A stretch of 64,000 bases of DNA from an uncultured Acidobacteriota bacterium. Lineage in GTDB: Bacteria; Acidobacteriota; Terriglobia; Terriglobales; Acidobacteriaceae. The notes beneath the pieces are model-generated. The model was not told the origin of the DNA. It did not search any database and saw only the letters and a program-made list of their open reading frames with translations. The first letter of the stretch is position 1; each line of letters begins with the position of its first letter. The translations under genes were made by a program, and so were the position numbers. Where the stretch lies: NCBI GenBank assembly GCA_963707735.1, contig CAVPRB010000008.1:40941-104940 (forward strand), given 5' to 3'. Positions 33,373 to 60,671 of this stretch are shown here, one piece after another.

Positions 33373-34494
33373 TTACGCCATCGTATCCGGTGTGAAAATT
33401 CGGCAACAGGCACCAGGCGCGTTGTTTTGTTTTCTGCTCAAACCCTCTCGCTCCGCCCTTACCTGAATCAGTTCTCCTACAATGCTGACTGCCAGTTCCT
33501 CCGGTGTCTCCGCCCCGATATTCGTACCAATTGGCGCGTAGACAGCCGCGAGTTCCTCTCTCCTAAATCCCTGTTTAATGAGTTCCTCGAAGAGCTTATC
33601 GCGCTTGCTTCGGCTGCCGATCATGCCGATGTAGGCGGCATTGCTCCGCAGTAGCTGTTCCAGCACGATTTTGTCGAAGAGATGACCTCTGGTCACGATC
33701 ACGAGATAACTGTTTTCATCAAGAGCCAACTCCGGCAACTTGCGAAATGAATCGATGACCATGATTTCCGCAGGCTCGCCGAATCTCTTTCGATTGGCAT
33801 ATTCTGCGCGATCATCCAAAACAACCGTTTTGAAACCAACACTCGCGCCCAGAGGCGCGATCCTTTGCGAAACGTGACCGGCGCCGAAGAGATAGACGGT
33901 TCCTGCCGGTCGAAGGGGTTCCACTAGAAATCGTTGATTGTCGAGCACCTCTGCGTGAATGGATATCTTGGCGGGCCCGGCAATCATCTTCTCCAGGATG
34001 TTCGGATCACAATCGATCTTGCCGATCAGAGTCTTGTCCGGCTTTACCAGACACCATTGCCTTTTTAGAGCTGCGCCGATTGGCGCTTTGTCCAATATGG
34101 TTACAAGCCAGGCTTTTTCTCCGCGTTCATAGACATCCGCCGCCGCTTCGCAGACCATGCGGCTATTCTCATCCGCTGCATCCACGAAGTCGATGAGGAC
34201 TTCCCCCGTGCCGCCGCAGATCATGTCCATCCCAGCCGCGTCCTTGCTCGTCAGGTCAAACCTCTGTATTACCGTCTGCCTGGCAGACAGCACCTCCAGG
34301 GCCCCGCGTATGGCATCCGCTTCCAGCCGCCCACCACCGATGCTGCCGGCGCTCGACCCACCGGCGCGGATGATCATCTTCGCACCGTCTGTGCGCGGCG
34401 CTGAGCCGATGTTGTCAAAGATGGTCGCAACGGCGAAGCTTTCTCCACTTCGCAAGAGCTGCACCATCTCTTGGTACAACTTCTTTGGGTTCAT
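33373..34494 (-). CDS. xdhC: XdhC-family molybdenum cofactor insertion chaperone (long form)
   Basis: The XdhC/CoxI N-domain carries SIGGGRLE and MICGGTGEVLIDF. The Rossmann domain carries VYLFGAGHVSQ and VTRGH..D. An extra segment of about 100 aa separates them. ATG at 34494. Confidence 0.8.
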   Translation of the reverse strand: MNPKKLYQEMVQLLRSGESFAVATIFDNIGSAPRTDGAKMIIRAGGSSAGSIGGGRLEADAIRGALEVLSARQTVIQRFDLTSKDAAGMDMICGGTGEVLIDFVDAADENSRMVCEAAADVYERGEKAWLVTILDKAPIGAALKRQWCLVKPDKTLIGKIDCDPNILEKMIAGPAKISIHAEVLDNQRFLVEPLRPAGTVYLFGAGHVSQRIAPLGASVGFKTVVLDDRAEYANRKRFGEPAEIMVIDSFRKLPELALDENSYLVIVTRGHLFDKIVLEQLLRSNAAYIGMIGSRSKRDKLFEELIKQGFRREELAAVYAPIGTNIGAETPEELAVSIVGELIQVRAEREGLSRKQNNAPGACCRIFTPDTMA

Positions 34495-34540
34495 AGTTCC
34501 TCCCGATTCATCTCTTGTGTCCAGCAATATTGCCTTGGAT

Positions 34541-34980
34541 TCACGGTGCAGCGGTGGCTATTAATTTAGCTAACCACGTTTGGATCTGGTCGCGGACCTC
34601 GCGGAAGAGAGCCACTGGTTCATCGGTTGTGGCCGCGGCTGGATCGCGAAAGCTGTGATGGACTCGCTTCTCAGTGCCGGGAAATATCGGGCATGACTGC
34701 TTTGCGTTGTCGCAGACCGTGACGACATAATCGAACTGCTAGCCCAGGAATTCATCAACTGGTTTTGAACGGCAGCCAGAAATCTCTATGCCAACTTCGG
34801 ACATGGCCTTGACCGCATTCGGATTCAATCCAACCGGCCTTGTGCCCGCGCTGAAAACATCGAAATTCTCGCCAGCCTTTCGCGCGACAGGCCCGCGCCA
34901 TCCGGCCGCGAGCGGAATTGCCGGTGCGGAGAAACAAGACTTTGCATCGTTCTTGCACGAACCTCACCTCTTTCCGCTGG
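34541..34980 (-). pseudogene. arsC: LMW-PTP-type arsenate reductase/phosphatase, decayed
   Basis: KVLFLRTGNSARG has Arg (CGC) where the catalytic Cys of CTGNSxRS should be. A frame change follows. An in-frame TAG then occurs in ...[29 protein letters not shown]... Confidence 0.65.
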
Positions 34981-35119
34981 TCGGGGTTGCTGAGGCCAGG
35001 CCGGCAACAGCAACATCGATGCCGACATTCGGCGTCAACCCGCCGAAAGCGCAAGCCCCGACCCAAATCGCTTCCTCCAGGCGCCAGGCCTCGTCCTTCA
35101 ATCGCGTCTGGCCACGAAA

Positions 35120-36367
35120 CTATGGACAAGGAGAAGCGGATCGCGCTTTCGGGAATGGTTCCACCGCTCCTACGTTATTCGAGAGAAGGTGGACTTTTAT
35201 CTCCTCCCCTGAGCGGAATGAGGTGCGCTCGGGTGGAAGGACCGCCAGAGCATCAGCATGGAGCAAGGTTCTCAAGAAGCGGGTGTCTTGATTGCCGGCA
35301 CTCCACGCCAAAAGTTTTCCATCCCTGGATTCAAGCCGGACGCGCCATAAGCAGGTCTTGCCAGGTACGTTTCGCAGATCCTCCTGAAGGATCGCAGCGA
35401 CGTATGGCTTGATAACGCACGGATAGCCCATCATTCGCAGAATGGCCGGGCGGACAAGCTCTTCGAAGGTAACCACTGCTGAAACGGGATTGCCGGGCAG
35501 CGAAAAAACCGGCTTTCCATTCTTCACTCCAAATGCAGTGGACTTTCCTGGCTTCATATCAATTCTCCAGAAGACTTGCTGTACATCGAGCTCCTGGAGA
35601 ATCTCACGGACCATGTCGCGGTCCCCTACCGAGACGCCTGCCACGGTGATCAGCACGTCGGCGCGGAGTCCCTCGCTTAACTTCTGCCGCAGGCTCTCCC
35701 GATTGTCTGTGGCAACACCAAGAATCAATGGCGCGCCTCCGGCCTCCTTAACTGCCGCTGCGATTGCCACGGAGTTACTGTTGAACACCTTACCAGCAGA
35801 GAGTGGTTGACCCGGTTCGACCAGTTCATCACCGGTTGCGAGAATGGCGACGCGAGGATTGCGATATACGCCCACCGATGTCCTGCCAAGAGACGCGAGC
35901 AGGCTAATCTCGGGCACGCGTACCGGGGTACCAACAGCGAGGGCAACTTCTCCAAGGCGGATGTCCTCTCCTTGCCTTCGAATATGCTGGCCGAGCACGA
36001 CCTCCGCCTTGATGCTGACCGCATCCTTGAGTTCTTCGGCATCCTCGAATGGGACAACCGCATCGCATCCCGGCGGGACAGGGGCTCCGGTCATGATTCT
36101 GACCGCACTCCGAGGGGCCACCTTAGCAGTCGCGACCGCACCCGCGGGAAGGTAGCCGCTGATCTTCAGCAATGCGAAACTGCTGCGATCCTTAAGTCGC
36201 ACGGCATAGCCATCCATCGAAGAATTGTCAAACGAGGGCAAGTTCACGGTGGCCATCACGTCTTCTGCCATCACTCTTCCGAGAGATTCGAGAAGCCCGA
36301 CCTGCTCGACTCCCATGAGCGCCACATGGTTTAGAATCTTCTCGCGCGCCTCTTCAAAACTCAACAT
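35120..36367 (-). CDS. moeA: molybdopterin molybdenumtransferase
   Basis: MLSFEEAREKIL start, SSMDGYAV motif, and a MoeA four-domain length of 415 aa. Confidence 0.9.
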   Translation of the reverse strand: MLSFEEAREKILNHVALMGVEQVGLLESLGRVMAEDVMATVNLPSFDNSSMDGYAVRLKDRSSFALLKISGYLPAGAVATAKVAPRSAVRIMTGAPVPPGCDAVVPFEDAEELKDAVSIKAEVVLGQHIRRQGEDIRLGEVALAVGTPVRVPEISLLASLGRTSVGVYRNPRVAILATGDELVEPGQPLSAGKVFNSNSVAIAAAVKEAGGAPLILGVATDNRESLRQKLSEGLRADVLITVAGVSVGDRDMVREILQELDVQQVFWRIDMKPGKSTAFGVKNGKPVFSLPGNPVSAVVTFEELVRPAILRMMGYPCVIKPYVAAILQEDLRNVPGKTCLWRVRLESRDGKLLAWSAGNQDTRFLRTLLHADALAVLPPERTSFRSGEEIKVHLLSNNVGAVEPFPKARSASPCP

Positions 36368-36632
36368 GGCGATCTTCGCCCTTCCTACGCGGCACTTTGT
36401 GCACGACCTCAACGGGCAGGCCCGGATGCAGTGCACTTCCCTCCAACACAAGCGCAAATAACCCGTTGCGCGGCATTCTGCAGCCGCCAGTTGTGTGGTA
36501 GATCACACATCGCGTGGGGCAGTCCTTGCCGATCCGGTTCGGTTCATCCTGCAGCAACTTCCCATCTGTCATGGCAGGACTCCGCACCGTCCCAGTCGCT
36601 AGAGCATTCACCCGAAGAATCAATTCGCTCAC
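36354..36632 (-). CDS. short MOSC-domain-like protein
   Basis: 92 aa. IGKDCPTRCVIYHTTGGCRMPRNGLFALVLEGSALHPGLPVEV resembles the C-terminal half of small MOSC proteins found next to moaA. The N-terminal half is missing. Confidence 0.4.
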   Translation of the reverse strand: MSELILRVNALATGTVRSPAMTDGKLLQDEPNRIGKDCPTRCVIYHTTGGCRMPRNGLFALVLEGSALHPGLPVEVVHKVPRRKGEDRHVEF

Positions 36633-36634
36633 CG

Positions 36635-37651
36635 TCAGCCTCCGATCTGGCTCATCGCGAAAGGACTGTCCATGGCGCGGGGAGCAACCTTTCCGGCAAC
36701 GTAGGATTGGAACTCCCGACGCGCGTCCTGCACCTTCATCGTTCGCAGTGTGCGGGGCAGATCAAGGGTCGTGGTATCCATCAGGCACCGGCGAATCTGG
36801 CCGCGTGCATCCATGCGCAGTCTCTCGCAACTCTGGCAGAAGGGATGGGAGCGAGGGGTGATCCATCCCACGGTCAACAAACTTCCGCGCCAGTTCAGCA
36901 GCGTCCTTCTTGCTGACGATCCGGTCACTTCCTGTACGGGCACAGTCTCAGCATTCAACTTGCTGCAGACCTCGTCAACAGAGATGAACTCGGACTCGCA
37001 CCACCCGTGCTCGGTCCCGGTTCGCATCAATTCGATGAATCGGATTTCAAAACCTAAGCGAGATGCAAAACTCAATAAACGAGGTACTTCCAGTCTCCAG
37101 GTGGAGCGCCGCAAGACGGTGTTGATCTTGATGGGAGTCAGCCCGGCGGTACGGGCGGCCTCGATGCCGGCCAAGGTGCGTTCAAGGCTCCCGCCGCGAG
37201 TGATCTCCGCAAATCTCGCTGGGTCAAGGGAATCAAGCGAAACATTGACGCGATTGAGTCCCGCCTTTTTCAGACTCCAGGCCATCTGAGACAACAATGT
37301 TCCGTTGGTAGTGAGCGAGACTTCCTGAATCCCGGGGACCGCGGACAATTGCTCAATCAGAGGCTCAATCCCACGGCGCACCAAGGGTTCTCCGCCGGTG
37401 ATCCTCACCCGGCGGATTCCGGTTTCGGAAACCAGCCAGTTCACCAGCCATACCAATCCTTCCAATGGCAGCAGGTCAGAGTGTGAGACCTTGGTGACAC
37501 CCTGCACGGGCATGCAGTAGCGACAACGGAAATTGCACAGATCCGTAATCGAGAGGCGGAGCAACTGTAACCGCTGCAACGGGCGCAAAAGAGCGGCTGC
37601 CTCGAGGGAGACCTTAAGGTTGGAGTCTGCCTGCGCCAATGGAGCCGGCAT
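36635..37651 (-). CDS. moaA: GTP 3',8-cyclase (radical SAM)
   Basis: LRLSITDLCNFRCRYCMP (a CX3CX2C motif), GGEPLVR, and C-terminal Cys residues (CQSCERLR). ATG at 37651. Confidence 0.9.
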   Translation of the reverse strand: MPAPLAQADSNLKVSLEAAALLRPLQRLQLLRLSITDLCNFRCRYCMPVQGVTKVSHSDLLPLEGLVWLVNWLVSETGIRRVRITGGEPLVRRGIEPLIEQLSAVPGIQEVSLTTNGTLLSQMAWSLKKAGLNRVNVSLDSLDPARFAEITRGGSLERTLAGIEAARTAGLTPIKINTVLRRSTWRLEVPRLLSFASRLGFEIRFIELMRTGTEHGWCESEFISVDEVCSKLNAETVPVQEVTGSSARRTLLNWRGSLLTVGWITPRSHPFCQSCERLRMDARGQIRRCLMDTTTLDLPRTLRTMKVQDARREFQSYVAGKVAPRAMDSPFAMSQIGG

Positions 37652-37997
37652 CGTATTCCCTTTCCTAGGCTTGAGTTTGCGCCATTGCAAATTCTTGTTT
37701 GCAGGTGGATACTCGCACACCCACCTCCGTCTTATCAACATTCTTCAAGTTGGCTGCCGAGGCGGCTGGAGTTGTAACCTGAACCCGACCCAAGCCTTAC
37801 CACGCGTGGACCAACCCCGGGAACGCTACGTACTATACCTCTGGAGCAGCCAGAGCTGCCCACATGCCGTTTTTCTTTTATCACCAGTCGTGTTCCGATA
37901 TTGAGCACGAGTTGCGCTCAACTCCTCAACATCGCGCTTTGCTGGAACCGGCACGGATGCCGCTTTCACCTCGGTTCAATCCAGGAGACGATCGGCC

Positions 37998-38258
37998 TCA
38001 CTTTTTGTAGTAGGCCGCGTTCAAAGCCGCAAAGTGCTGCAGTTCCTCCGGCAGCTCTTCAATCGAGAAGATAGCCTCGTTTTCGCAGGCTGCTATGCAC
38101 GAACCGCAGGTAATACACTTCTTGGGGTTAATGTATAGCTGCTTTACGCCCTCGTACCCCGGCTCCTCTTTCTTGGGATGAATGGCCTTCTTCTGGCAGA
38201 CAGGAATACACTTCATGTCTTTAATGCATTTGTCCGTGATGACGCTAAAACTGGGCAT
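37998..38258 (-). CDS. small ferredoxin (two Fe-S cluster motifs)
   Basis: 86 aa. Carries DKCIKDMKCIPVC and CITCGSCIAAC cysteine clusters. It is the last gene of the hydrogenase transcription unit. Confidence 0.75.
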   Translation of the reverse strand: MPSFSVITDKCIKDMKCIPVCQKKAIHPKKEEPGYEGVKQLYINPKKCITCGSCIAACENEAIFSIEELPEELQHFAALNAAYYKK

Positions 38259-38320: not shown

Positions 38321-39403
38321 TCACCGGTCCGTGCATGAGTAACAGGGATCGATCGAAGCCTGGATTAACGGCGTATCCGCAAGTCGAGCGCCACGAACCA
38401 TGCAGCGAATCGCCGGCATGTTGGCAAAAGTTGGAGTCCGCACATGGACGCGGCTGGGTGAATCCGATTCCTCTTCCCATGAAACGCTGTAGAACACCTC
38501 TCCGCGAGGCGCTTCGACGCGGCTGAAGCCTCTTCCCGACGGAAACTCCAATTCCTCGCCGCCCGCGTGCAAATCGCCGGAAGGTAGTTTGGCGAGGGCC
38601 TGCCGGAGAATGCGGCAGCTCTCCAGAATCTCCAGCGCGCGCACTACGAGGCGGGCTTTTACATCTCCGGAATGATCCACGGGCACATTGAATTCCATTT
38701 CTTCATAGGCGGCGTAAGGGGCTGCGCGGCGAATGTCCTGCGATAGTCCGGAGGCGCGTGCGGTAGGTCCGACGACACCCAGGGAGCGCGCCTGTTCTTC
38801 GCTGAGGACACCAATACCGGCACACCGGGACAGGGCGGTGCGGCTGGAAGTGAAGATCGGGATAATGGTTTTCACCATGTCCCGTTCCAGGTCGTCAATC
38901 ATAAGAAGAATTGTGGCCGGATCGGTGATGTCGCGATTGACCCCTCCAACGCGGTTCATCGAATAGTTAACCCGATTCCCGGAGATGGCTTGCAGCACGT
39001 CCATTACTTTCTCGCGAATGGCGAAGCAGGTCATGAACATGGTTTTAAAGCCCATGAGCTTGCCTGCAATACCGGCCCATAGTACATGAGAATGCAGACG
39101 CTCCAGTTCAGCTATGATTACGCGGATATACAGTGCGCGCGGAGGAGGACTGAGCTCAAGGACCTGCTCTATGGCCTGACAGATAGAAAGCGTGTGAATG
39201 TTCGAACAGATGCCGCAGACGCGCTCCATCAGGGCGATGACCTGGATGTGGTTGCGTGTTTCGGCCAAATGCTCGATGCCGCGGAAGTTGAACCCAATAT
39301 GAATCCTGGCGTCCTGGACGGTTTCGCCGTCGCAGATCAGGTCAAGCTTGTAGGGTTCCTCTAAGGCGGGGTGGTAAGGTCCCATTGGAATCTGATAGCT
39401 CAT
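38321..39403 (-). CDS. group 4 [NiFe]-hydrogenase large subunit (EchE/MbhL/NuoD-like)
   Basis: 360 aa. The N-terminal Ni-binding motif is RVCGICSNIH. The C-terminal motif DPCYSCTDR is followed directly by the stop codon, so there is no cleavable extension. Confidence 0.9.
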   Translation of the reverse strand: MSYQIPMGPYHPALEEPYKLDLICDGETVQDARIHIGFNFRGIEHLAETRNHIQVIALMERVCGICSNIHTLSICQAIEQVLELSPPPRALYIRVIIAELERLHSHVLWAGIAGKLMGFKTMFMTCFAIREKVMDVLQAISGNRVNYSMNRVGGVNRDITDPATILLMIDDLERDMVKTIIPIFTSSRTALSRCAGIGVLSEEQARSLGVVGPTARASGLSQDIRRAAPYAAYEEMEFNVPVDHSGDVKARLVVRALEILESCRILRQALAKLPSGDLHAGGEELEFPSGRGFSRVEAPRGEVFYSVSWEEESDSPSRVHVRTPTFANMPAIRCMVRGARLADTPLIQASIDPCYSCTDR

Positions 39404-39807
39404 TCGGCCTCCTCGCGCAGGTTCACGCCCACCTTGTCGCCCGCTCGCAGCATGAGGGACTCGTAATCCCGTCCAATGAAGTTGATGGCAAAGTATTCGT
39501 GGATCTCACGTTCGATCCAGTCGGCTGCCTCGCAGAGGTCGTAGATGCTATCCACCTGGCCATTCTCCACCTGCACTTCAAAGCTCAAGAGCTGGCCATC
39601 TAGGTCCCAGTGGTAGTCCATGACGATGCCGCCGTGCTCTGGCAGTTCGGTGGCGGTAATAGTGATGAATCGCGCCTTGCGGCCTTTCATGAGCGTCGCC
39701 AGTTTGCGCACATCAAGTGCCCCTGCGGCCAGCCAGTTCGAACCGCCCTTCTGCTCCCAGAGTTCGTTCAGTTCCAAGTCCGATGGGATGCTGTCGATTG
39801 TGCTCAT
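39400..39807 (-). CDS. NuoC/30-kDa-like hydrogenase subunit
   Basis: 135 aa with a C-terminal WIEREIHEYFAINFIGRD-type NuoC signature. Confidence 0.75.
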   Translation of the reverse strand: MSTIDSIPSDLELNELWEQKGGSNWLAAGALDVRKLATLMKGRKARFITITATELPEHGGIVMDYHWDLDGQLLSFEVQVENGQVDSIYDLCEAADWIEREIHEYFAINFIGRDYESLMLRAGDKVGVNLREEAE

Positions 39808-40229
39808 TTTGCCTCTCCCGAAGACGGAGTTGCTTCCGTCCCGTTTGGAGCCGGAGGCGCCTCTGGCTTTGCTTTTGGCGGTAGCTGCGGGCGCTGCGAG
39901 GTTTGGGTGAAATTCAATTCATCTCGCTTGAAGTAAATCGGCGGGCACGCCGCGTCCTGGGTGAGCGCATGCGCTTCGCAACCATCCACGCAGCGTCCGC
40001 AATAAGTGCATTGGCCGGGATCGTAGCTCCAGGTGTAGGCTGTGCGGGTAGGGCGGAAGGTGATGCCTCGCGACGTGCAGCGATAGGAGCAGATGCCGCA
40101 ACCCGTGCACAACTTGGCGTCATAGCGCACAAGACCGCGGTACCCCAGATCCGCCGGCGGGCGTTGCGGAAAGCGCAAGGTGACGGAGCCGCCCATGAAG
40201 TTCTTGAATAACAGGTCCAGAATGTTCAT
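39804..40229 (-). CDS. NuoI/EchF-like 2x[4Fe-4S] subunit
   Basis: Starts at MNILDLL (ATG 40229). Carries CTGCGICSYRC and CTYCGRCVDGC motifs and a Pro/Ala-rich tail. Confidence 0.75.
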   Translation of the reverse strand: MNILDLLFKNFMGGSVTLRFPQRPPADLGYRGLVRYDAKLCTGCGICSYRCTSRGITFRPTRTAYTWSYDPGQCTYCGRCVDGCEAHALTQDAACPPIYFKRDELNFTQTSQRPQLPPKAKPEAPPAPNGTEATPSSGEAK

Positions 40230-41140
40230 AGCTTGAGCCTCATCAGCAGCGCGGATGAAACGCCGAGCACGGCGAAGATCACAGCGCATCGCCAGTAGAA
40301 GCGCACCGAGGAATCGATTGCCAGGCGGGCGGTTGCCGTCGCCACCACGGAGAGCAGCAGAACTACCGCGAAGGAGAATGCAATGAAAATCGCGGCCGCC
40401 AGCCAGACATTGCCGACCTGCGGAGCGACCAGCGCTGCAACCAATCCGGTAGCGGCCACCCACTCCAACCCGTGCGCAAGCTCCCAGAGTGCCAACTCGG
40501 GGCCTGCGTACTCAGTCAGCGGTCCGGCGTACATCTCCTGCTCCGCATTGGTGACAGAGAAGGGATTGAGGTGCAGCTTTGCGGGCAGGCAGACGAGGAT
40601 CGCCAGCACTCCAAGCCAGCGCAGCGGTGAAGCGTGCGACTGCGCCAGCGCTTGCAGGCTGAACGTATGTTGCGAAGCCGCAATGGCGACGACCGCCATG
40701 AGGAAGACAACGTTGTAGGAGATGCTCATCACCGCCTCGCGCGCGGAGCCAATCTCACCCCACAGGGAGCGGGAGGAAAAACCGGCGGCAATGACAAACA
40801 TCGAGGGCAATTCCAGCAACGAGAGCAGCAGGATGAGGTCACCGGCAAATCCGCCGGAGCGCGGGACCACCGGAAGCAGTCCAACCGCCCCGGCCGCCGC
40901 GGCCACGGAGAGAACCGGCCACGTCCTCATCAACCAGCCGCCCAGTCCGCTGCGCGAGGGAACATCCTTGCTCATCAACTTAACGAAGTCAAAGAACGGC
41001 TGCATGAAGGGCGGACCCATGCGCTGTTGCATCACGGCTACTGCTTTGCGTTCTGCCCAAAGGAAGAACCAAGCGGTAGGAATGGCAAATAAAAGGCCCG
41101 GAAAGATCAGGAGACGCAGCAATGCGGTAGTCAGATTCAT
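40226..41140 (-). CDS. NuoH/EchB/HycD-like membrane subunit
   Basis: 304 aa, polytopic. N-terminal AERKAVAVMQQRMGP is typical of the NuoH family. Confidence 0.85.
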   Translation of the reverse strand: MNLTTALLRLLIFPGLLFAIPTAWFFLWAERKAVAVMQQRMGPPFMQPFFDFVKLMSKDVPSRSGLGGWLMRTWPVLSVAAAAGAVGLLPVVPRSGGFAGDLILLLSLLELPSMFVIAAGFSSRSLWGEIGSAREAVMSISYNVVFLMAVVAIAASQHTFSLQALAQSHASPLRWLGVLAILVCLPAKLHLNPFSVTNAEQEMYAGPLTEYAGPELALWELAHGLEWVAATGLVAALVAPQVGNVWLAAAIFIAFSFAVVLLLSVVATATARLAIDSSVRFYWRCAVIFAVLGVSSALLMRLKL

Positions 41141-52610: not shown

Positions 52611-52611
52611 A

Positions 52612-52824: not shown

Positions 52825-53588
52825 TTCCTGGTGCTGAGTGCGACCTGCGGTACAGGTACGGGCCGGGGAAGGCCCCCGGCTGTGCGGGAGTGCTGGCGCA
52901 TCCAGGCGGATTCGGACTGACCTTGCGTGCGATAGAGCTTGCCCGGTTGAATAAGGGCGCACGTGTTTTGGACCTGGGATGCGGCTCGGGGGAGAGCGTC
53001 CAGCTACTGCGAGCGATCGGCATTGACGCGATCGGATTGGATCACGCGCTCTTGTCTCTCCATCGATCTGCAGCGGAGAACGGCTCATGCGTCGAAGCCT
53101 CCGCCGAGGAACTACCCTTTGCGGATTCGTCCATGGATGGAGTACTCGCGGAGTGCAGTCTTTCGGAGATGTGGAAGCCGCAAAGGGTGCTGGCAGAGTG
53201 CGCCCGTGTTCTCTGTCCCGGTGGCCGGTTGATGATTTCAGACATTTACGCGCGCAATTCCAATTCCCAGGCGATCAGGGCCATCCGGAGCCTCCAGGGA
53301 ACATGCGCATCAGCGATGTTTGTGCGCGAGGAACTGGAGAGTTGGCTGCACGAAGCGGGCTTCGCGCCGCAGTGTTTTGAGGATCATTCGTGCGCTCTTC
53401 GCGAGTTCGTCGCGCGCTTCATCTTTGATCACGGTTCGATAGAGCCGCTATGGGAGGAGGAAGCGCACGCATCGAATGCGCAGGCAATTGCTGCCGCTAT
53501 GAAGCAGGCGAGAGCGGGTTATTTTCTCCAGATTTCCACTTATGTGGAGGGAAGGGTGAAGGAAAATGGGAACCGCGATGCGAGATGA
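52821..53588 (+). CDS. class I SAM-dependent methyltransferase
   Basis: Motif I VLDLGCGSGE and motif post-I/II (DGVLAECSL...LCPGGRLMISD). Confidence 0.8.
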   Translation: MIPGAECDLRYRYGPGKAPGCAGVLAHPGGFGLTLRAIELARLNKGARVLDLGCGSGESVQLLRAIGIDAIGLDHALLSLHRSAAENGSCVEASAEELPFADSSMDGVLAECSLSEMWKPQRVLAECARVLCPGGRLMISDIYARNSNSQAIRAIRSLQGTCASAMFVREELESWLHEAGFAPQCFEDHSCALREFVARFIFDHGSIEPLWEEEAHASNAQAIAAAMKQARAGYFLQISTYVEGRVKENGNRDAR

Positions 53589-54028
53589 CGAGTTTGGAAT
53601 CATGGAACTTGCCATGCGCGGATTCAACTGCAGCCAGATACTTGTTTTGATGGCCCTGGAGGCACAGGGCCGGGAGTGTCCGGATCTGGTGCGCGCCATG
53701 ACCGGCCTGCTCTCCGGCCTCGGCTGCGGAAAACTCTGCGGAGCTCTTACCGGGGGATGCTGCGTGCTGGGAATGTATGCCGGCAAGGATTCCGTCGAAA
53801 ACAACGCGGATCACCCGATTGCAGACCATGCTCGCGAATTTTGTAGAGTGGTTCGAATCGGAATACACGACTCGATACGGCGGCATCAACTGCGCGGAGA
53901 TTGTGCAGGACGACGCGCGCCTGAGAATGACGCGCTGCCAATCGATCGTCATGGAAAGCCTGGAAAAACTCAGGGAAATTCTTGCGGATCATGATTATGA
54001 GTTCAGCCAGCAGCCACATTCCGTCTAG
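53566..54028 (+). pseudogene. C-GCAxxG-C-C family protein, one frame change
   Basis: GFNCSQ...GCGKLCGALTGGCCVLG is in ORF 53566. The conserved C-terminus LQTMLANFVEWFESEYTTRYGGINCAEIV...RCQSIV is in ORF 53777..54028. The shift lies near 53818. Confidence 0.7.
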
Positions 54029-55154
54029 GGAGCCGGCGCCGGGGATCGCAGCGATCATTCTTGCTGCTGGATACTCGTCACGCATGGGGCAGTTTAAGCC
54101 CCTGTTGCGGATGGGTGATTGCCTGGTGATCGAATCCGTTGTGCGGATGTTTTTCAATGCTGGAATCTCAAATGTTAACGTGGTGGTGGGTCATCGCGCA
54201 CAGGAACTGTACCCGGTTGTCGAGGCTTCGGGCGCCAAGTGCGTGCCGAATCCTGAGTTTGATCAGGGCATGTATTCGTCCGTGTGTGCGGGCGTAGCGG
54301 CACTGCCGGTTGGTGTTGAGGCGTGCTTCGTGATCCCTGCAGACATTCCGCTGGTGCGGGCGAGCACAATTCGCCGCATGGTTCGCTACTTCTTTGCAGA
54401 AGAGAGCAAACCAGTGGTCTATCCGGTCTTTGAGGAACGCCGGGGACATCCACCGCTGATTTCCCGTGCGGTTCTGTCGGAAGCATTGGCAGGCGGGCCA
54501 TTCGCGAGTCTCTCCGCGCTGCTGGCGAACCATGAGGACGAGGCGTTCAATCTTTTTGTGCCGGATGAGGGCATTCACCTCGATCTGGACACGCCAGAGG
54601 ACTTGACCAGAAGTTGTGAGATTGCTTCGCACCGTGAGATTCCCAGTCCACGGGAGTGCGAAGCTCTTTTGGCTTGCTATCAAAGTGATGGTCTGGTGAT
54701 TCGACACTCACGGGCGGTTGCGGAGGTTGCGTACCGCATGGCGTTGGCCTTGGCAGAGAGAAAACTCCCGCTTGACCCTTACCTGGCGAGGGCAGGCGGG
54801 CTTTTGCATGATCTGGCCAAAGGTATGGATGACCATGCCGGCGCCGGTGCGCGCCTTCTCCGTGATTTCGAGTTTGAGAATGTCGCCCGCGTGGTGGCGG
54901 CACACACCGATTGCTCCTCAGATGAGCAGAAATTGGACGAGGCTGCGATCCTCTACCTGGCAGACAAACTGGTGAGCGGCGAGCAGCTGGTGGGACTGGC
55001 GCAGCGCTTCCATCGGTCACGGGAGAGGTTTCGCGAAAACCCCCACGCCTTGGCCGCGGTTCTGCGGAGGCAAGCCCGGGCGGAAGCGATTGCCAAGGAA
55101 GTTGAATCCTGCCTCGGGGTTGAATTGCAATGCCTGCTCGGCGCTACGCGGTGA
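53991..55154 (+). CDS. MobA/MocA-like NTP transferase fused to an HD-domain phosphohydrolase
   Basis: N-terminal AAIILAAGYSSRMGQFKPLL matches the MocA/MobA signature. The C-terminal region has HS...GLLHDLAKG...AAHTD, typical of HD domains. Confidence 0.8.
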   Translation: MIMSSASSHIPSREPAPGIAAIILAAGYSSRMGQFKPLLRMGDCLVIESVVRMFFNAGISNVNVVVGHRAQELYPVVEASGAKCVPNPEFDQGMYSSVCAGVAALPVGVEACFVIPADIPLVRASTIRRMVRYFFAEESKPVVYPVFEERRGHPPLISRAVLSEALAGGPFASLSALLANHEDEAFNLFVPDEGIHLDLDTPEDLTRSCEIASHREIPSPRECEALLACYQSDGLVIRHSRAVAEVAYRMALALAERKLPLDPYLARAGGLLHDLAKGMDDHAGAGARLLRDFEFENVARVVAAHTDCSSDEQKLDEAAILYLADKLVSGEQLVGLAQRFHRSRERFRENPHALAAVLRRQARAEAIAKEVESCLGVELQCLLGATR

Positions 55155-55173
55155 GAACAGGGAAGGCAAGAAT

Positions 55174-56616
55174 ATGGCGGTGCAAACAATGAGCGGGGCT
55201 GTCAGAAAGTTGGGAGTAACGGAAAGCGTTTGCCCGCACTGCTTGCGCCGCATCGATGCCGAACGAATTGCCGAAGGAGACGACGTTTTTCTTCGTAAGA
55301 ACTGTCCTGAACATGGGCCGTTCCAGACTATTCTCTGGCGCGGGTTGGAATCCTACAGCGCCTGGGCAGACAAGAGGATGGTGCCGTCTCGTCCACCTTC
55401 CTGCTCAGCTGGCACGTCGCGCGGATGTCCGTTCGACTGCGGCCTCTGTTCCGAACACCGTCAGCACACCTGTTGCGTGGTCCTGGAGGTGACTCAACGC
55501 TGCAATCTGAATTGCCCGGTTTGCTTTGCTGACGCAAAATCGGATGGCAGAATTGATCCCAGTCTCAAGGAAATCCAGGTTTGGTGCCAGACCCTGTTAA
55601 GCAACGGTGGTCCGTATAATATTCAGCTCTCCGGTGGAGAACCGGCCTTGCGTGACGATCTTCCGGAGATCGTCCAGATGATACGGGCATGCGGCTTCAG
55701 TTTCGTGCAACTGAATACCAACGGCGTTCGACTCGCCCAGGACCGTGACTACGCGAGGCGGTTGAAGGATGCGGGACTTGGCTGCGTCTTTCTGCAGTTC
55801 GACGGCGTTTCCGAGGCGGTCCACCGTAAGATTCGCAGCCTCGACCTCCGCCAAGTCAAGGATGCTGCGATTCGCATCTGTACTGATTATGAATTGGGAG
55901 TTGTGCTGGTGCCCACGCTTGTGCCCGGCGTCAACACCGCACAGATTGGCGACATGATCCGGTTTGCCATCGCCAACGCGCCCACCGTCCGTGCGATTCA
56001 CTTTCAGCCCGTCAGCTACTTTGGCCGCTACCCGTCACTGCCTCAAGATTCTGATCGCATCACGCTACCGGAGGTGATGCAGAGGATCGAGGAACAGACC
56101 GCCGGCCTCTTTTGCGCGAAGGATTTCTACCCTGCTTCGGGCGAGAACGCTTTTTGCGAATTTCACGGGAAATTCTGGTTGCGTCCTGATGGCCGGGTTG
56201 AGCCCGCGGTGCGGCCCGTAGTTTCGTGTTGTGCACCGCCCCGCGATGAACGCCTGGTGCAACTCGGAGCCGAACCAGATGGAAACGGCGAAGCAGCGCG
56301 GCGGGCGCGCAAGTTTGTTGCGCAGCACTGGGCGCTTCCGCCGCTGAAGCCTGTGTCCGTCCCCGAGGCGGGAATCGATGTCAGCAGCCTTGATGCATTC
56401 CTCGCCCAGAATAGGCATTCTTTCTGCATCTCCGGCATGGCTTTTCAGGATGCATGGAATCTCGATCTCACCCGCTTGAAAGAGTGTTTTCTGCATGTCC
56501 TCTCTCCGGACCGGAAAATGGTTCCGCTCTGCGCCTACAATCTCACCGGCATCGACGGTCGCGCGCTCTATCGAACATTCGGTATCGCGCAGGCTGAGGC
56601 CGGAGGCGTGGCATGA
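55174..56616 (+). CDS. radical SAM protein with N-terminal Zn-ribbon and large C-terminal domain
   Basis: CPHCLRR...CPEHG ribbon, GCPFDCGLCSEH, the radical SAM triad CNLNCPVC, and LSGGEP. 480 aa. Confidence 0.85.
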   Translation: MAVQTMSGAVRKLGVTESVCPHCLRRIDAERIAEGDDVFLRKNCPEHGPFQTILWRGLESYSAWADKRMVPSRPPSCSAGTSRGCPFDCGLCSEHRQHTCCVVLEVTQRCNLNCPVCFADAKSDGRIDPSLKEIQVWCQTLLSNGGPYNIQLSGGEPALRDDLPEIVQMIRACGFSFVQLNTNGVRLAQDRDYARRLKDAGLGCVFLQFDGVSEAVHRKIRSLDLRQVKDAAIRICTDYELGVVLVPTLVPGVNTAQIGDMIRFAIANAPTVRAIHFQPVSYFGRYPSLPQDSDRITLPEVMQRIEEQTAGLFCAKDFYPASGENAFCEFHGKFWLRPDGRVEPAVRPVVSCCAPPRDERLVQLGAEPDGNGEAARRARKFVAQHWALPPLKPVSVPEAGIDVSSLDAFLAQNRHSFCISGMAFQDAWNLDLTRLKECFLHVLSPDRKMVPLCAYNLTGIDGRALYRTFGIAQAEAGGVA

Positions 56617-57959
56617 ATACCTCTCTTGCCGCGATTCGGAAAACGCCTTTGGAGAATTGGATTGCGCATCGCATCGATGTCGCTCCTGGGACGCTTACGC
56701 CAAGCGACCTATCGCGATACCAGGTGGCAAAGCTGCGCCAGACTCTGGGCTGGGTACGAGAACGCAGTTCATTCTACTCGCGTCATCTTAGCGGCTTCGA
56801 TGAATCTTCGCTGCGGTCGATGGAGGACGTGCGCCGGATTCCATTTACTACCGCGGCGGACCTTTCCCGGCATGCATCGCGTTTCCTTTGCGTTTCGCAG
56901 GACGAGATTCAACGGGTTGTGACTCTGGCGAGCAGCGGCACCAGCGGAGAGCCGAAGCGCCTTTTCTTCACTGCATCAGACCAGGAGTCCGCGCTCGACT
57001 TCTTCGAACACGGCGTATCGACCCTGGCGGAGCGCGGAGACACGATGTTGATCGCCCTTCCCGGCGAACGACATGGAAGCGTGGGCAATTTGCTTGCCAA
57101 GGGAATCGAACGATCCGGTGTGAGGCCGGTCGCGTATGGGCTGATCTCGAATCCCGCGGATGTTTTAGAGACGATGGCGCGCGAGTGCGCAACCAGCATC
57201 ATCGGGTTCCCGGTGCAGTTGTTATGTCTCGCAAATCAGCGCGGTCGGCTTGCAGACCGGGTCTTTTCTAAGCTGCGCAGCATTGTGTTGTGCAGCGATC
57301 ACGTTCCATCGGCCGCCGTCCGGACATTGCAACAGCGCGCCGGGTGCGAAGTGTTTGAACATTATGGCATGACCGAGATGGGATTAGGCGGCGGGGTGGA
57401 TTGCCAAGCCCACGCCGGTTATCACCTGCGAGAGGCTGACCTCCTGTTCGAGATTGTAGATGTTCGAAGCGGAGAGCCAATGCCCGACGGAGAGATGGGA
57501 GAGGTCGTGTTTTCGACTCTTACGCGCCAAGGAATGCCGCTGATCCGATACCGGACCGGCGACATCTCTGGTTTTTCCGCGGAACGGTGTCCATGCGGTA
57601 CCATGCTGAAGACTTTGCAACGTATTCGCGAACGGTCCGATGGCAGAATTTCTCTTGGCCCTTGTGGCGAAATCAACATGGCCGTTCTAGATGATGCCTT
57701 GTTCGAGGTTCCAGGCCTGGTTGATTTTGCCGCCATTCTGACTCGTGCCACGACGGCAGAACTTCGGATTGTGTGCCAACTTCTGTACACCGAGGAACAG
57801 TCTGCAATTCATTCCGCAGTCGAGCGGTTAGAACAGAACGTAATTGCAATTGAGCGCGGGCGGCGGAGTGGAGAATTGCGGTTGCGAGTCGAGGTGGCAT
57901 CCAAACCGTTCGTGTTCAACGGCGCGAAAAGAAGGATCGAGGTGCGCGGAGAGCAATGA
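56613..57959 (+). CDS. PaaK/F390-synthetase-family adenylate-forming ligase
   Basis: SSGTSGEPKR AMP-binding motif, YGMTE, and a length of about 448 aa typical of phenylacetate-CoA-ligase-like enzymes. Confidence 0.85.
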   Translation: MNTSLAAIRKTPLENWIAHRIDVAPGTLTPSDLSRYQVAKLRQTLGWVRERSSFYSRHLSGFDESSLRSMEDVRRIPFTTAADLSRHASRFLCVSQDEIQRVVTLASSGTSGEPKRLFFTASDQESALDFFEHGVSTLAERGDTMLIALPGERHGSVGNLLAKGIERSGVRPVAYGLISNPADVLETMARECATSIIGFPVQLLCLANQRGRLADRVFSKLRSIVLCSDHVPSAAVRTLQQRAGCEVFEHYGMTEMGLGGGVDCQAHAGYHLREADLLFEIVDVRSGEPMPDGEMGEVVFSTLTRQGMPLIRYRTGDISGFSAERCPCGTMLKTLQRIRERSDGRISLGPCGEINMAVLDDALFEVPGLVDFAAILTRATTAELRIVCQLLYTEEQSAIHSAVERLEQNVIAIERGRRSGELRLRVEVASKPFVFNGAKRRIEVRGEQ

Positions 57960-58615
57960 ACCCAAGCAAGCTCTATCTCGTGCGGCACGGTGAGATCATC
58001 TCTGTGAGTGGCAAGAGGTACATCGGGCAACTGGAGGCGCCGCTGAGCGAACGCGGAGTGGAGCAGGCCTGGGCCCTCCGCAACTGGCTGGAGCCGATCG
58101 AATTTTCCCGAATCCTATGCAGCGATCTCACCCGTTCCGAACGAACGGCAAAGATCATCACCGGCCAACGGGAAGTCCCCATTCAGGTGCGGTCTGAACT
58201 GCGCGAAGTCAACCTTGGCGATTGGGAGGGCGTCAGCTTTCGCGAGATCGCGACCCGCTTTCCCGCAGATTTCGAAGCCCGGGGAAGAGATTTGGAACAC
58301 TGGCGCCCTCCGGGAGGAGAGAGTTTTGCCGACTGCTGGAATCGTATCTCTCCAGTTCTGGATAAGGTCCTATCCAACCCAGGGGGAAACATTCTTATTG
58401 TCGGCCACGCGGGCGTTAATCGGTTAATTCTGTGTGCCGCGCTCGGAATCCCGACAGCCAACCTGATGAGCCTGGGTCAAGATTACGGCTGTCTGAACAT
58501 CATCGAGTACAACGATCAGCGCTGCCGCCTGCAGCTGCTGAACTATGCACCGTTGGTAACCGGGATGGCCATGCAGGCTACGCAAGTCAATTCCCAGCGC
58601 AGGGCGAGCAGATGA
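57956..58615 (+). CDS. histidine phosphatase family protein (CobC/PGM-like)
   Basis: LVRHGE (the RHG motif), SDLTRS, and a downstream GHAG motif. Confidence 0.85.
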   Translation: MNPSKLYLVRHGEIISVSGKRYIGQLEAPLSERGVEQAWALRNWLEPIEFSRILCSDLTRSERTAKIITGQREVPIQVRSELREVNLGDWEGVSFREIATRFPADFEARGRDLEHWRPPGGESFADCWNRISPVLDKVLSNPGGNILIVGHAGVNRLILCAALGIPTANLMSLGQDYGCLNIIEYNDQRCRLQLLNYAPLVTGMAMQATQVNSQRRASR

Positions 58616-58628
58616 GAGGTAGGACGCG

Positions 58629-59804
58629 ATGGCAATCGTATACTTAGACAACAACGGCACGACTCCCTTGCTACCGGAAGTACTGGAAGCGATGATGCCC
58701 TACTTCCGGGAGGAATTCGGGAATCCCTCCTCCATTCATGCGTGCGGCCGGCGTGCGCTCGCTGCTCTGAAGCATGCGCGCACCTCCGTGGCAAGTATGC
58801 TGGGGTCCCGGGCAACAGAGATTATCTTTACCAGCGGCGGGACAGAAGGCGATAATCTTGCGCTCCTCGGAATGGTTGCCCCGGGAGACCACGTCATTAC
58901 CTCCGTCATTGAACACAGCGCGATCCTGCAGACCTGCCTCTACCTCGAGCACATCGGCTGCCAGGTTACGCGGATTGGAGTGAGTTCCGACGGGCGGATC
59001 GACCCTGATGATGTGCGCAAAGCATTGCGGCCGAATACAAAGCTCATCTCAGTCATGATGGCAAATAACGAGACTGGGGTGCTGCAACCGGTCCAGGAGA
59101 TCGGAGACCTCGCCAAGGAGGCCGATGTGTGGTTCCACACCGATGCCGTGCAGGCCGCGGGCAAGGTCGCCATCGACGTCGCTCGGCTCGGCTGCGATCT
59201 GCTGACGATCACTGCGCACAAGATCCATGGCCCGCAGGGAACCGGTGCTCTGTTCGTGCGCCGAGGAACCCCGCTGCGTCCGCAGATTCACGGTGGTCAT
59301 CAGGAGAACGGGCGGCGCCCCGGCACCGAAAATATTCCCGGAATCGTTGGCCTCGGCCGCGCCTGCGAGATTGCGCGGCGTGGATTGAGTGATGGCTCAA
59401 TGGCACGGATTGGTTCATGGCGCGACAAATTGGAAGCAGCGGCGCTGGAGCAAATTTCAGGGACCGGCGTGAATGGCGCGAACGCCCCGCGGGTTTCGAA
59501 TACGTCCAACATTTACTTCGATCATGTGGGAGGTGACGCACTGGTCCTGGCGCTCGACGAACTCGGGATCGCTGTCTCGCGCGGAGCAGCCTGCAATGCG
59601 GGCGAGGCCGAACCCTCCAGCATTCTCATGGCGATGGGGCTCAGCGGCGAGCGTTCGCGGTCCAGCTTGCGCTTTAGCATCGGGAAGGCAGACTCGGAAC
59701 CAGACATCGACTATCTGATCTCCGTCTTGCCCGGCGCCGTACGGCGGCTGCGTGAAGCATCGCCATTCTTCTCAACTTCGCAATCGGTCATAACCCACGG
59801 ATGA
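58629..59804 (+). CDS. nifS: cysteine desulfurase (NifS/IscS class)
   Basis: SGGTEGDN, the PLP lysine in ITAHKIHGPQG, and the active-site Cys in SRGAACNAG. Confidence 0.9.
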   Translation: MAIVYLDNNGTTPLLPEVLEAMMPYFREEFGNPSSIHACGRRALAALKHARTSVASMLGSRATEIIFTSGGTEGDNLALLGMVAPGDHVITSVIEHSAILQTCLYLEHIGCQVTRIGVSSDGRIDPDDVRKALRPNTKLISVMMANNETGVLQPVQEIGDLAKEADVWFHTDAVQAAGKVAIDVARLGCDLLTITAHKIHGPQGTGALFVRRGTPLRPQIHGGHQENGRRPGTENIPGIVGLGRACEIARRGLSDGSMARIGSWRDKLEAAALEQISGTGVNGANAPRVSNTSNIYFDHVGGDALVLALDELGIAVSRGAACNAGEAEPSSILMAMGLSGERSRSSLRFSIGKADSEPDIDYLISVLPGAVRRLREASPFFSTSQSVITHG

Positions 59805-59840
59805 TATGAGTTCTGCGGCCCGCATGGATGGGAGAAGACA

Positions 59841-60671
59841 ATGGATATCTATAGCGAAATCTGCAACCTGAAACGTCAGGGAAGACGCTCTGCCTTGGCC
59901 ACCATTGTGAATGCCAGGGGTTCCATCCCATCGGTTACGGCAGCAAAGATGCTGGTCCGCGATGACGGTTCGATCCTTGGTACCATCGGTGGCGGTTGTG
60001 TTGAGAACGATATCCGCAATGGGGCGATGGAAGTGATGAAAGACGAGAAGCCGAGGACGTTCAACTTCAATCTCGACCAGCATCCAGACGATGATACCGG
60101 CTTGGTCTGCGGCGGTGCGCTTCAAGTTTTCGTCGAGCCAGTTATTCCACCCCCATTGCTGTACGTCTTCGGCGCCGGTCACGTGGGCTTCAATATCTAC
60201 AAGGTTGCGCAGATCGCCGGTTTTGAGGTTGTCGTCGTCGATGATCGGGACACCTTCGCAAATCGTGAGCGATTTCCAGACGCGCTTGATGTTCATGCAG
60301 GCGACATGGACCTGATGATGTCGCAACTCGCCCCCCCGGACAGCTCTTTTATCGCAATTGTTACCCGGGGCCACCGCCATGACATGCGCGTCCTGCGCTG
60401 GGCGGTAGATACCATGGCACGTTACATCGGCATGATCGGTTCGGGGCGCAAAGTGCTTACCGTCTTCGGAGAGCTGGAGAAACAGGGCGTCTCACGCGAA
60501 AAATTAATGCAGGTATATGCTCCCATCGGCCTGCAAATAGGTTCGGTGACACCGGAGGAGATTGCCGTGTCCGTGGTAGCGGAGTTGATTGCCATCCGCC
60601 GCCACTGCGAAATTCCAATGCCGCATTCGCGCAATCGAATTCGCGACGACGAGCCGGCCACAACCAAGTAG
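59841..60671 (+). CDS. xdhC: XdhC-family molybdenum cofactor insertion chaperone (short form)
   Basis: TIGGGCVE and LVCGGALQVFVEP in the N-domain; LYVFGAGHVG and VTRGHRHD in the Rossmann domain. Confidence 0.85.
   Translation: MDIYSEICNLKRQGRRSALATIVNARGSIPSVTAAKMLVRDDGSILGTIGGGCVENDIRNGAMEVMKDEKPRTFNFNLDQHPDDDTGLVCGGALQVFVEPVIPPPLLYVFGAGHVGFNIYKVAQIAGFEVVVVDDRDTFANRERFPDALDVHAGDMDLMMSQLAPPDSSFIAIVTRGHRHDMRVLRWAVDTMARYIGMIGSGRKVLTVFGELEKQGVSREKLMQVYAPIGLQIGSVTPEEIAVSVVAELIAIRRHCEIPMPHSRNRIRDDEPATTK

Follow-up and report, generated by a model that had tools for sequence, protein, structure and literature searches.

The stretch analysed here, 64,000 nucleotides of an uncultured Acidobacteriota bacterium (hereafter, the window), contains a 27-kb block at 33373-60671, in which a group 4 [NiFe] hydrogenase operon with a trailing ferredoxin gene, molybdenum cofactor (Moco) genes, a sigma-54 enhancer-binding protein (EBP) and the operon of a Mop-type molybdopterin aldehyde oxidoreductase are located next to each other. 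An earlier note, based on the letters of this DNA, had proposed that the hydrogenase is paired with Mop. Six-frame open reading frames (ORFs) of the window were annotated with Pfam and NCBIfam, and the hydrogenase, the ferredoxin, the Moco genes, the activator and the Mop operon described there were all recovered intact. We give somewhat better than even chances to the reading that these genes specify a substrate-induced chain, putatively running from Mop via the ferredoxin to the hydrogenase under one EBP, i.e., an 'aldehyde hydrogenlyase'.

The hydrogenase operon is encoded on the minus strand and consists of six genes. The first encodes a NuoL/MrpA-like membrane subunit (41604-44633; 1009 aa, and 1004-1023 aa in relatives) with one Pfam Proton_antipo_N and two Proton_antipo_M stretches, which is presumed to be the ion-translocating module. 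It is followed by the NuoB-like small subunit (41137-41619; Oxidored_q6), with the four Cys for the proximal cluster in CNGC...GSCP...GCPP, a NuoH-like membrane subunit (40226-41140; NADHdh), a NuoI-like 2x[4Fe-4S] subunit (39804-40229; Pfam Fer4 families, NCBIfam HycF/NuoI-like matches below cut-off), called at 141 aa here and in relatives, a NuoC-like subunit (39400-39807; 135 aa; Complex1_30kDa) and the large subunit (38321-39403; 360 aa; Complex1_49kDa and NiFeSe_Hases). The large subunit carries the nickel-ligand motifs RVCGICS (residues 61-67) and, at the C-terminus, DPCYSCTDR, whose columns are invariant in the family alignment. By these motifs and by the subunit set, which includes the NuoB-like protein with its four conserved Cys, the NuoH-like and the NuoL-like proteins, the predicted enzyme is a group 4 hydrogenase.

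The closest solved structures to the large subunit are the Pyrococcus furiosus membrane-bound hydrogenase (MBH; 6cfw_L, 4e-77) and then E. coli HycE (7z0s_E). Despite this best PDB match, the single antiporter-like gene and the total of six genes depart from the Mrp-linked MBH type (4d). The separate NuoC-like and large subunits depart from formate hydrogenlyase (FHL, group 4a), and the scan of window ORFs turned up no formate dehydrogenase; nor was carbon monoxide dehydrogenase (CODH), the partner of Coo-type (4c) enzymes, found in those ORFs or among the genes called in those linked loci that were examined, i.e., loci in which the hydrogenase stands together with the EBP and Mop genes. Pfam scans of the larger ORFs across the rest of the 64-kb window gave no formate dehydrogenase, CODH or hyp genes, in agreement with the earlier note, which had reported the two usual donor enzymes missing locally. 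As to the HydDB subgroup, NCBIfam holds no specific model, and 50%-cluster representatives and cluster names gave generic labels alone. Homologues of the large subunit number in the thousands, and the best of them are labelled Terracidiphilus or Acidobacteriaceae metagenome-assembled genomes (MAGs) from peat and soil; the nearest cluster representatives outside the hydrogenase family are MAG proteins that are at most 55% identical. Surveys of Terracidiphilus MAGs have reported group 4b (with formate dehydrogenase) and non-formate 4d enzymes (PMC9599518).

Divergent from the hydrogenase operon, the EBP gene (44811-46811, plus strand) encodes a MimR_N/GAF/PAS sensor, an AAA+ sigma-54 interaction domain (Sigma54_activat, AAA_lid_14) and HTH_8 by Pfam, with the MimR_N domain taken from precomputed annotation of orthologues; -24/-12 promoters and upstream activating sequences (UAS) lie at its target operons, apart from the hydrogenase promoter of the window, L004 and L014, where no UAS was detected. 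Known effectors in this EBP family are acetoin and acetaldehyde for AcoR and acetone for MimR.

The Mop gene follows on the plus strand (47442-50183). Its product, with 2x[2Fe-2S] and Moco domains, scored 1567 bits against the NCBIfam equivalog NF045668 (cut-off 1100) and 1245 bits against the Desulfovibrio gigas MOP structure 1sij, to which it is colinear end to end with the GVGE context of the catalytic Glu retained. All five domains of the xanthine oxidase (XO) family, i.e., two [2Fe-2S] domains, the a/b hammerhead and two Moco-binding domains, were matched by Pfam. By sequence, Mop and the D. gigas enzyme are true orthologues. The MocA-like, two XdhC and NifS-like genes of the operon point indirectly to aldehyde oxidation with a molybdopterin cytosine dinucleotide (MCD) cofactor. 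After Mop, in every locus examined, stands the gene of an Fe-S flavoprotein partner (50286-52610, plus strand; NF045663, 992 bits, cut-off 530; Pfam Fer4_20, partial Pyr_redox_2, Fer4_17 and CCG), in which an NfnB/GltD-like N-terminus is fused to an HdrD-like C-terminal half with the CCG domain. Residues ~21-219 match the NfnB-type modules 8oh5_C, 9n5u_A, 5jca_L and 4ylf_B, with the NAD(P)H-binding half unmatched; this stretch corresponds to the [4Fe-4S]2/FAD module that faces ferredoxin in NfnB-type enzymes. The NCBIfam name 'diclust_near_Sec' hints at selenocysteine near some members of the partner family.

The remaining genes of the Mop operon, all on the plus strand, encode a zinc-ribbon-like DUF7479 protein of 70 aa (52612-52824), aligning with the DUF7479 genes of loci L018 and L021, a SAM-dependent methyltransferase (52821-53588; Methyltransf_11/25), a C_GCAxxG_C_C putative redox protein (53566-53994; PF09719), a MobA/MocA-like nucleotidyltransferase fused to an HD domain (53982-55154; NTP_transf_3 and HD), a candidate molybdopterin cytidylyltransferase, a radical SAM enzyme with an HMPTM-type zinc ribbon (55090-56616; Radical_SAM and Zn_ribbon_HMPTM), an AMP-binding, adenylate-forming enzyme (56613-57959; AMP-binding), a histidine phosphatase family protein (57956-58615; His_Phos_1), a NifS-like class V aminotransferase (58629-59804; Aminotran_5), a candidate sulfur donor for Moco sulfuration, and a second XdhC chaperone (59841-60671; XdhC_CoxI and XdhC_C). 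The genes listed in the earlier note hold, while the DUF7479 gene had been overlooked; it is kept after the partner gene in all Mop-centred loci fetched (L018-L023, L104). Across phyla, at 73-84% Mop identity, the operon keeps a core in the order Mop, partner, DUF7479, methyltransferase, GCAxxG, MocA/HD, radical SAM, AMP-binding, histidine phosphatase, NifS-like and XdhC, and the XdhC-type gene likewise closes the operon in L018, L019 and L104. The accessory set from DUF7479 to the histidine phosphatase is found behind Mop and its partner in at least four phyla (L018-L023, L104) and may modify or mature the pterin cofactor; the HMPTM zinc ribbon of the radical SAM enzyme is of the pterin methylase type.

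To the left of the hydrogenase operon, on the minus strand, lies the gene of an 86-aa ferredoxin (37998-38258; Pfam Fer4 families; CxxDxxCxxxC...CxxCxxCxxxC). The earlier note had taken it for a plain 2x[4Fe-4S] pattern, which does not hold: Asp replaces one Cys, the second of the first cluster motif (CxxDxxC), and this Cys/Asp pattern is kept in 12 loci. The ferredoxin that joins aldehyde and pyruvate ferredoxin oxidoreductases (AOR and POR) to MBH in P. furiosus also has the CxxDxxC Asp. In L092 (11147-12019), there are two tandem ferredoxin copies, one with Ala in place of Asp. Beyond the ferredoxin, also on the minus strand, are the genes of MoaA (36635-37741; Radical_SAM and Mob_synth_C), the radical SAM enzyme of the first Moco synthesis step, whose start is likely at 37651, and of MoeA (35120-36457; MoeA_N, MoCF_biosynth and MoeA_C; kept in L004 and L014), for molybdenum insertion into molybdopterin, whose true start probably lies later than that of the ORF. 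MoaA was found in every linked locus with sufficient downstream sequence.

Across the 64 kb, the pattern TGGC-N7-TTGCW matches at exactly two positions, 44661-44646 (-) and 47105-47120 (+), both correctly oriented as promoters of the two divergent operons. The hydrogenase-operon promoter (TGGCCTCTGGTTTGCA, 44646-44661, minus strand) ends 12 nt before the ATG and is invariant within an otherwise divergent intergenic alignment of relatives. A sigma-54 promoter stands beside the NuoL-like start codon in 11 of the 11 distinct linked loci examined, including L028, L035, L092 and L020; its spacing to the ATG is 11-12 nt in ten linked loci and 15-21 nt in L019. About 40 unlinked loci carry a different conserved motif, TCACATC...(T/C)A..AT, which ends ~7 nt before the ATG, and no sigma-54 promoter is present there. 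This promoter swap is the clearest sign of an apparent recruitment of the hydrogenase into the regulon. With promoter-like elements that end 12 nt (linked) or ~7 nt (unlinked) before the ATG, the mRNA from which the first hydrogenase gene is translated appears to be leaderless or nearly so in linked and unlinked loci alike. The TCACATC-type motif of the unlinked loci looks like a different promoter or operator. One unlinked Terracidiphilus locus (L008) has, besides this motif, a perfect TGGCACCCGTCTTGCA at 4589-4604, 52 nt upstream of its hydrogenase operon, and an EBP gene is absent within 10 kb.

The Mop-operon promoter (TGGCACTTTGATTGCA, 47105-47120, plus strand), 322 nt upstream of the Mop ATG, matches TGGCAC-N5-TTGC exactly, which no other site of the window does; it is kept in L004, L014 and L015. 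The search for 11-mers shared between the two promoter regions gave none. An internal sigma-54-like element in the 3' end of the large-subunit gene (38378-38393, minus strand; TGGCGCTCGACTTGC(A/G)) shows synonymous-site conservation in L004, L014, L015 and L025 as well as in the window. The other linked loci lack it, as do unlinked loci that encode the identical peptide, and it was rejected as a general feature, being kept in these 5 linked loci alone.

Alignment of the Mop upstream regions of relatives revealed a tandem pair of the UAS motif GTGTTC-N7-GAGCAC in a block that is invariant there. In the window, this pair (GTGTTCCAGAATTGAGCAT and GTGTTCAATTTTGGCGCAC, 46844-46887, plus strand) lies upstream of the Mop promoter; on the Mop side, it was found in all linked loci scanned and is absent from the unlinked hydrogenase loci L007-L013. 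A second tandem pair lies in the ferredoxin/moaA interval (37890-37932), with an exact GTGTTCCGATATTGAGCAC at 37890-37908 and a second site 24 nt away, and is found at the equivalent place in L004, L014, L015, L025 and L047. Between this downstream pair and moaA, no convincing conserved -24/-12 element of a sigma-54 promoter was found. A weight matrix was built from the tandem sites, and loci of 11-25 kb were scanned at a threshold of at least 10 bits. Matches cluster at no more than three places per linked locus, with isolated 10-11-bit matches elsewhere in three loci. Of the nine linked loci scanned, six have a UAS on the upstream side of the hydrogenase promoter, at 132-156 nt in L015, L025, L035, L047 and L049 and at 261 nt in L092. 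Unlinked loci lack these sites. Judged from them, it is plausible for the whole family that all three units are driven by one EBP.

We compared the arrangement across relatives. The order Mop, EBP, six-gene hydrogenase, ferredoxin and MoaA is kept at 91% (L004-6), 87% (L014) and 79% (L015-17) large-subunit identity, while the outer flanking genes differ among these loci, and extra genes stand between EBP and Mop in L014 (one) and L015 (two). Relatives L007-L013, at 67-78% identity, have the six hydrogenase genes alone. Two loci keep the linkage in rearranged form: L019 (65.5% GC), with moaA and a DUF3034 gene between EBP and Mop, and L020 (70.6% GC, Mop labelled Anaeromyxobacter), with the accessory genes inverted. 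A homologue search on the hydrogenase side of L020, with its NuoL N-terminus, gave fragments alone. The GC content of linked loci ranges from 57 to 71%. A metagenome scan with the large-subunit alignment added 80 further loci; the EBP was present in 5 of the 31 with sufficient upstream sequence and the ferredoxin in 6 of the 67 with sufficient downstream sequence. In a neighbour-joining (NJ) tree, nine of the 12 linked large subunits form one clade (bootstrap 164/200, 82%), and the other three (L028, L035, L092) are placed among unlinked sequences. EBPs of hydrogenase-linked loci are 57-83% identical, versus 38-39% for those of the unlinked Mop loci L022 and L023. The Mop operon without hydrogenase was found in a Terracidiphilus MAG (L018), Telmatospirillum siberiense (L021), a Dissulfurispiraceae MAG (L022) and Lucifera butyrica (L023).

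The ferredoxin is the proposed redox link between Mop and the hydrogenase. Among the metagenome loci, it is present in five of five EBP-linked loci versus none of 23 others (Fisher p = 1e-5). Locus L104 contains the EBP, MoaA, the Mop operon and a homologous ferredoxin (51% identical), transcribed divergently from a sigma-54 promoter, and no hydrogenase. Because L104 keeps EBP, ferredoxin and Mop without the hydrogenase, the ferredoxin belongs to the Mop/EBP regulon. In the linked loci, the hydrogenase genes stand between the L104-type sigma-54 promoter and the ferredoxin. Beyond the ferredoxin and a TOBE gene, L104 also encodes a pyruvate formate-lyase (PFL)-like glycyl-radical enzyme and its activase (2123-5178), a possible anaerobic source or sink of aldehyde.

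The neighbourhood of the two operons could also be read as hitch-hiking, in which two anaerobic modules, each useful by itself and functionally unrelated, share a mobile or recombination-prone island. Just outside the block, at 31721-33413, there are a split DDE_3 transposase and fragments of NAMPT_N and TIG, and since these flank the block, they suggest that its left border underwent recent rearrangement. The DDE_3 transposase, a resolvase fragment and truncated genes at this border, a GC content of the block (0.58) slightly under that of the rest of the window (0.61), and the 73-84% identity of Mop across several phyla, which suggests horizontal transfer, are all consistent with such an island. 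Against this stand the persistence of the linkage through rearrangements and GC amelioration, the different flanking genes of its carriers, the pattern of ferredoxin and EBP described above, and the promoter swap together with the shared UAS, which argue for regulatory integration beyond proximity. We regard hitch-hiking as very improbable.

The leftmost gene of the block encodes the long-form XdhC-type Moco insertion chaperone (33373-34527, minus strand; XdhC_CoxI and XdhC_C), which is 57-63% identical to the Mop-operon XdhC of Dissulfurispiraceae and Lucifera and is absent from L004, the relative at 91%. The Moco gene set of the earlier note stands as far as moaA, moeA and XdhC are concerned, while moaC and a MOSC/MoCF gene, both intact at the matching position in L004 and L005, are gone from the window. 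A 92-aa remnant ORF (36354-36632, minus strand) matches part of the L004 MOSC/MoCF gene (tblastn, 62% over 53 aa).

In the aldehyde hydrogenlyase that we favour, the EBP would be activated by a small inducer of the carbonyl type (probably an aldehyde or something related) and would bind the GTGTTC-N7-GAGCAC sites, thereby turning on the local Moco genes as well as the Mop and hydrogenase-ferredoxin operons. Mop would convert the aldehyde to the acid, with electrons leaving through its two [2Fe-2S] clusters into the NfnB-like/HdrD-like Fe-S flavoprotein, which would pass them to the 86-aa ferredoxin. The six-subunit group 4 [NiFe] hydrogenase would then re-oxidise the ferredoxin and yield H2, and the NuoL-like subunit would probably move ions. 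The net reaction would be R-CHO + H2O -> R-COOH + H2. We infer the substrate and inducer, the electron route through the partner, the direction of flow and the ion pumping. The acid/aldehyde couple (~ -580 mV) lies below H+/H2 (-414 mV), and the difference of about -32 kJ/mol is enough for ion translocation, for which the NuoL-like subunit with its two antiporter domains could use it. The in vitro aldehyde-to-H2 chain mentioned in the earlier note is on record, rebuilt with D. gigas MOP (Barata 1993, as cited in PMC3565340). A Mop-like protein was up 142-fold in Sulfurospirillum fermenting pyruvate, which makes H2 via a group 4 hydrogenase (PMC6242987).

The same components could run in reverse, with H2 uptake and the ion gradient yielding reduced ferredoxin, with which Mop would reduce acids to aldehydes and further to alcohols, or which would feed the radical SAM maturation enzymes of the operon. 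Ech-type enzymes are reversible, and organic acids are abundant in acidic peat; the reverse reaction is endergonic by ~32 kJ/mol with H2, XO-family Mop enzymes are not known to reduce acids, and no alcohol dehydrogenase was found among the annotated genes of the block. In acetogenic Clostridia, the aor gene is under sigma-54/AorR regulation and its product reduces acetate to acetaldehyde (PMC6615313), although this enzyme is a tungsten AOR from a family other than that of Mop. We hold reverse operation to be quite improbable.

Several observations weigh against the aldehyde hydrogenlyase. Near the hydrogenase promoter, the weight-matrix scan detected no UAS in the window, L004 and L014; the hydrogenase-side enhancer of the window is decayed or unrecognisable, and for this reason co-activation in the window rests on the sigma-54 promoter and the adjacency of the EBP. 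Shared regulation, whose absence the earlier note had listed as a ground for rejection, is thus probable from the sigma-54 promoters flanking one EBP and from UAS on both sides in six of nine loci, but not from a hydrogenase-side UAS in the window and its two closest relatives. The Moco genes are partly degraded in the window (moaC and MOSC/MoCF lost, with the 92-aa remnant at 36354-36632). The physiological substrate of Mop-family enzymes is unsettled, and the CCG domain of the partner suggests an alternative electron exit, to a disulfide or a quinone. The carriers are, without exception, uncultured MAGs or metagenome contigs, and function here is predicted from sequence. Finally, 26 of the 31 evaluable hydrogenase loci (~84%) and most Mop operons are unlinked, and because most of both stand apart, neither Mop nor the hydrogenase needs the other. 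Conservation of the linkage, as expected from the earlier note, is seen at 91, 87 and 79% identity and in rearranged form at 65% and 71% GC, but not in the majority of loci. Likewise, the pairing of Mop and hydrogenase holds as linkage and probable co-regulation, whereas its description as 'dedicated' was too strong, since the hydrogenase family and the Mop operons are mostly apart.

In a further explanation, one EBP co-regulates both operons without their being coupled by electrons, and the two would serve side by side in an anoxic or fermentative response: ferredoxin electrons from general metabolism, such as those of pyruvate:ferredoxin oxidoreductase (PFOR), would be drained by the hydrogenase, and Mop would detoxify aldehydes via its CCG-domain partner and another acceptor. 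Clustering of flanking ORFs gave no conserved redox partner adjacent to the unlinked hydrogenases (none in more than 12 loci), so there is also no sign beside them of the known, different partner that the earlier note had listed as a ground for rejection. Because of this missing redox neighbour, the unlinked members fit general ferredoxin-pool hydrogenases, as the uncoupled explanation would have it; the Mop/partner pair operates without hydrogenase in other phyla, and the HdrD-like CCG domain indicates a disulfide or a quinone as the acceptor. What speaks for coupling is, on the one hand, the ferredoxin, which is restricted to EBP loci, either after the hydrogenase or, in L104, beside EBP and Mop, and is hard to explain unless it serves Mop; on the other hand, the sigma-54 promoter has been substituted specifically at the hydrogenase in linked loci. 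We consider uncoupled co-regulation unlikely, yet the most likely of the rivals, followed by reverse operation and then by hitch-hiking on a mobile island.

The closest organisational analogue of the aldehyde hydrogenlyase is the FHL of E. coli (FdhF with Hyc/Hyf and FhlA). In both, a molybdenum enzyme for a low-potential substrate is tied genetically and regulatorily to a group 4 [NiFe] hydrogenase, and a substrate-sensing sigma-54 EBP with a GAF domain is present. Unlike FHL, whose donor FdhF belongs to the DMSO-reductase family and docks on HycB, the system described here has an XO-family Mop (MCD, 2x[2Fe-2S]) as the putative donor, with a free ferredoxin and an Fe-S flavoprotein interposed, and its NuoC-like and NuoD-like subunits are separate and not fused as in HycE. 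The Coo system (CooS-CooF-CooMKLXUH) of Rhodospirillum and Carboxydothermus has a six-gene hydrogenase of similar gene content and order, with a very long CooM-like NuoL subunit, a ferredoxin-type carrier encoded beside the hydrogenase and a substrate sensor that switches on the system. It differs in that no CODH or CooF was found here, the regulator is a sigma-54 EBP and not CooA, and the order of the small-subunit and NuoH-like genes is swapped.

In P. furiosus, aldehyde oxidation by AOR/POR reduces the CxxDxxC ferredoxin, which is re-oxidised by the ion-translocating group 4 hydrogenase, MBH, the closest solved structure to the large subunit of the window. AOR is a tungsten enzyme of an unrelated family; it supplies a general ferredoxin pool and is not known to be genetically linked to MBH, which has 14 subunits with an Mrp module versus six here. 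The D. gigas MOP chain has the enzyme family in common with the Mop of the window; it reportedly used flavodoxin, cytochrome and a periplasmic hydrogenase, and no hydrogenase linkage or shared regulation is reported for it. Literature searches found no described pairing of Mop with a group 4 hydrogenase. The novelty claimed in the earlier note thus extends to the pairing and not to the principle: FHL and Coo already provide donor enzymes that are hard-wired to group 4 hydrogenases and controlled by a substrate-sensing regulator, and Mop as the donor would be new.

Hydrogenlyases are known for formate and CO and serve as models, both of minimal respiratory chains and of how complex I arose. If the proposed chain holds, an XO-family aldehyde oxidoreductase would be the third genetically hard-wired donor and would broaden the hydrogenlyase class, and the long-studied Mop and its partner protein would gain a physiological role. 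Energy would be conserved from aldehyde oxidation without an external electron acceptor, with H2 passing to peat methanogens; for acidic peatlands, with their abundant Acidobacteriaceae and H2-fed methanogenesis, this would be a source of H2 not considered before. It is possible, at somewhat less than even chances, that peat Acidobacteria and at least one high-GC, Anaeromyxobacter-labelled lineage own such a third hydrogenlyase, an inducible, ion-translocating aldehyde:proton oxidoreductase with an Asp-ligated ferredoxin. The loci form a natural series for dissection, i.e., hydrogenase alone, Mop alone, EBP with ferredoxin and Mop (L104) and the full module, and the swap of the hydrogenase promoter provides a clear genetic handle.

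The sigma-54 promoter and Mop are separated by a DUF3034 gene in L014 (1229-2164), L015 (1084-2019) and L019 (9061-9969); the product of this gene has a signal peptide and a C-terminal YAF and looks like an outer-membrane beta-barrel. Near the Mop locus of Telmatospirillum (L021), a Phenol_MetA_deg channel gene is located at 6784-7929. Together, these genes hint that the substrate is hydrophobic or aromatic and imported from outside. In the window, the 322-nt Mop leader was compared with the DUF3034 gene, and tblastn gave no similarity that would mark it as a remnant; a search for a Moco riboswitch (Rfam, E <= 1, over 33-61 kb) gave no match.

The rest of the window contains the his operon, 2-oxoglutarate dehydrogenase E1, transporters, FG-GAP/Big_3_5 surface proteins, the resolvase fragment and the DDE_3 transposase. 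Two large secreted proteins of 286 and 970 aa (FG-GAP, Big_3_5, MBG) are encoded at 25567-29349, adjoined by the resolvase fragment (25192-25560), and are unrelated to the finding. The window matches contig_13202 of ENA ERZ25039481, a deposited copy of this locus (L001). In that copy, the NuoL-like, NuoH-like, EBP and MoeA genes are split by frameshifts, whereas the window copy is intact; these frameshifts are probably assembly errors and not pseudogenes.

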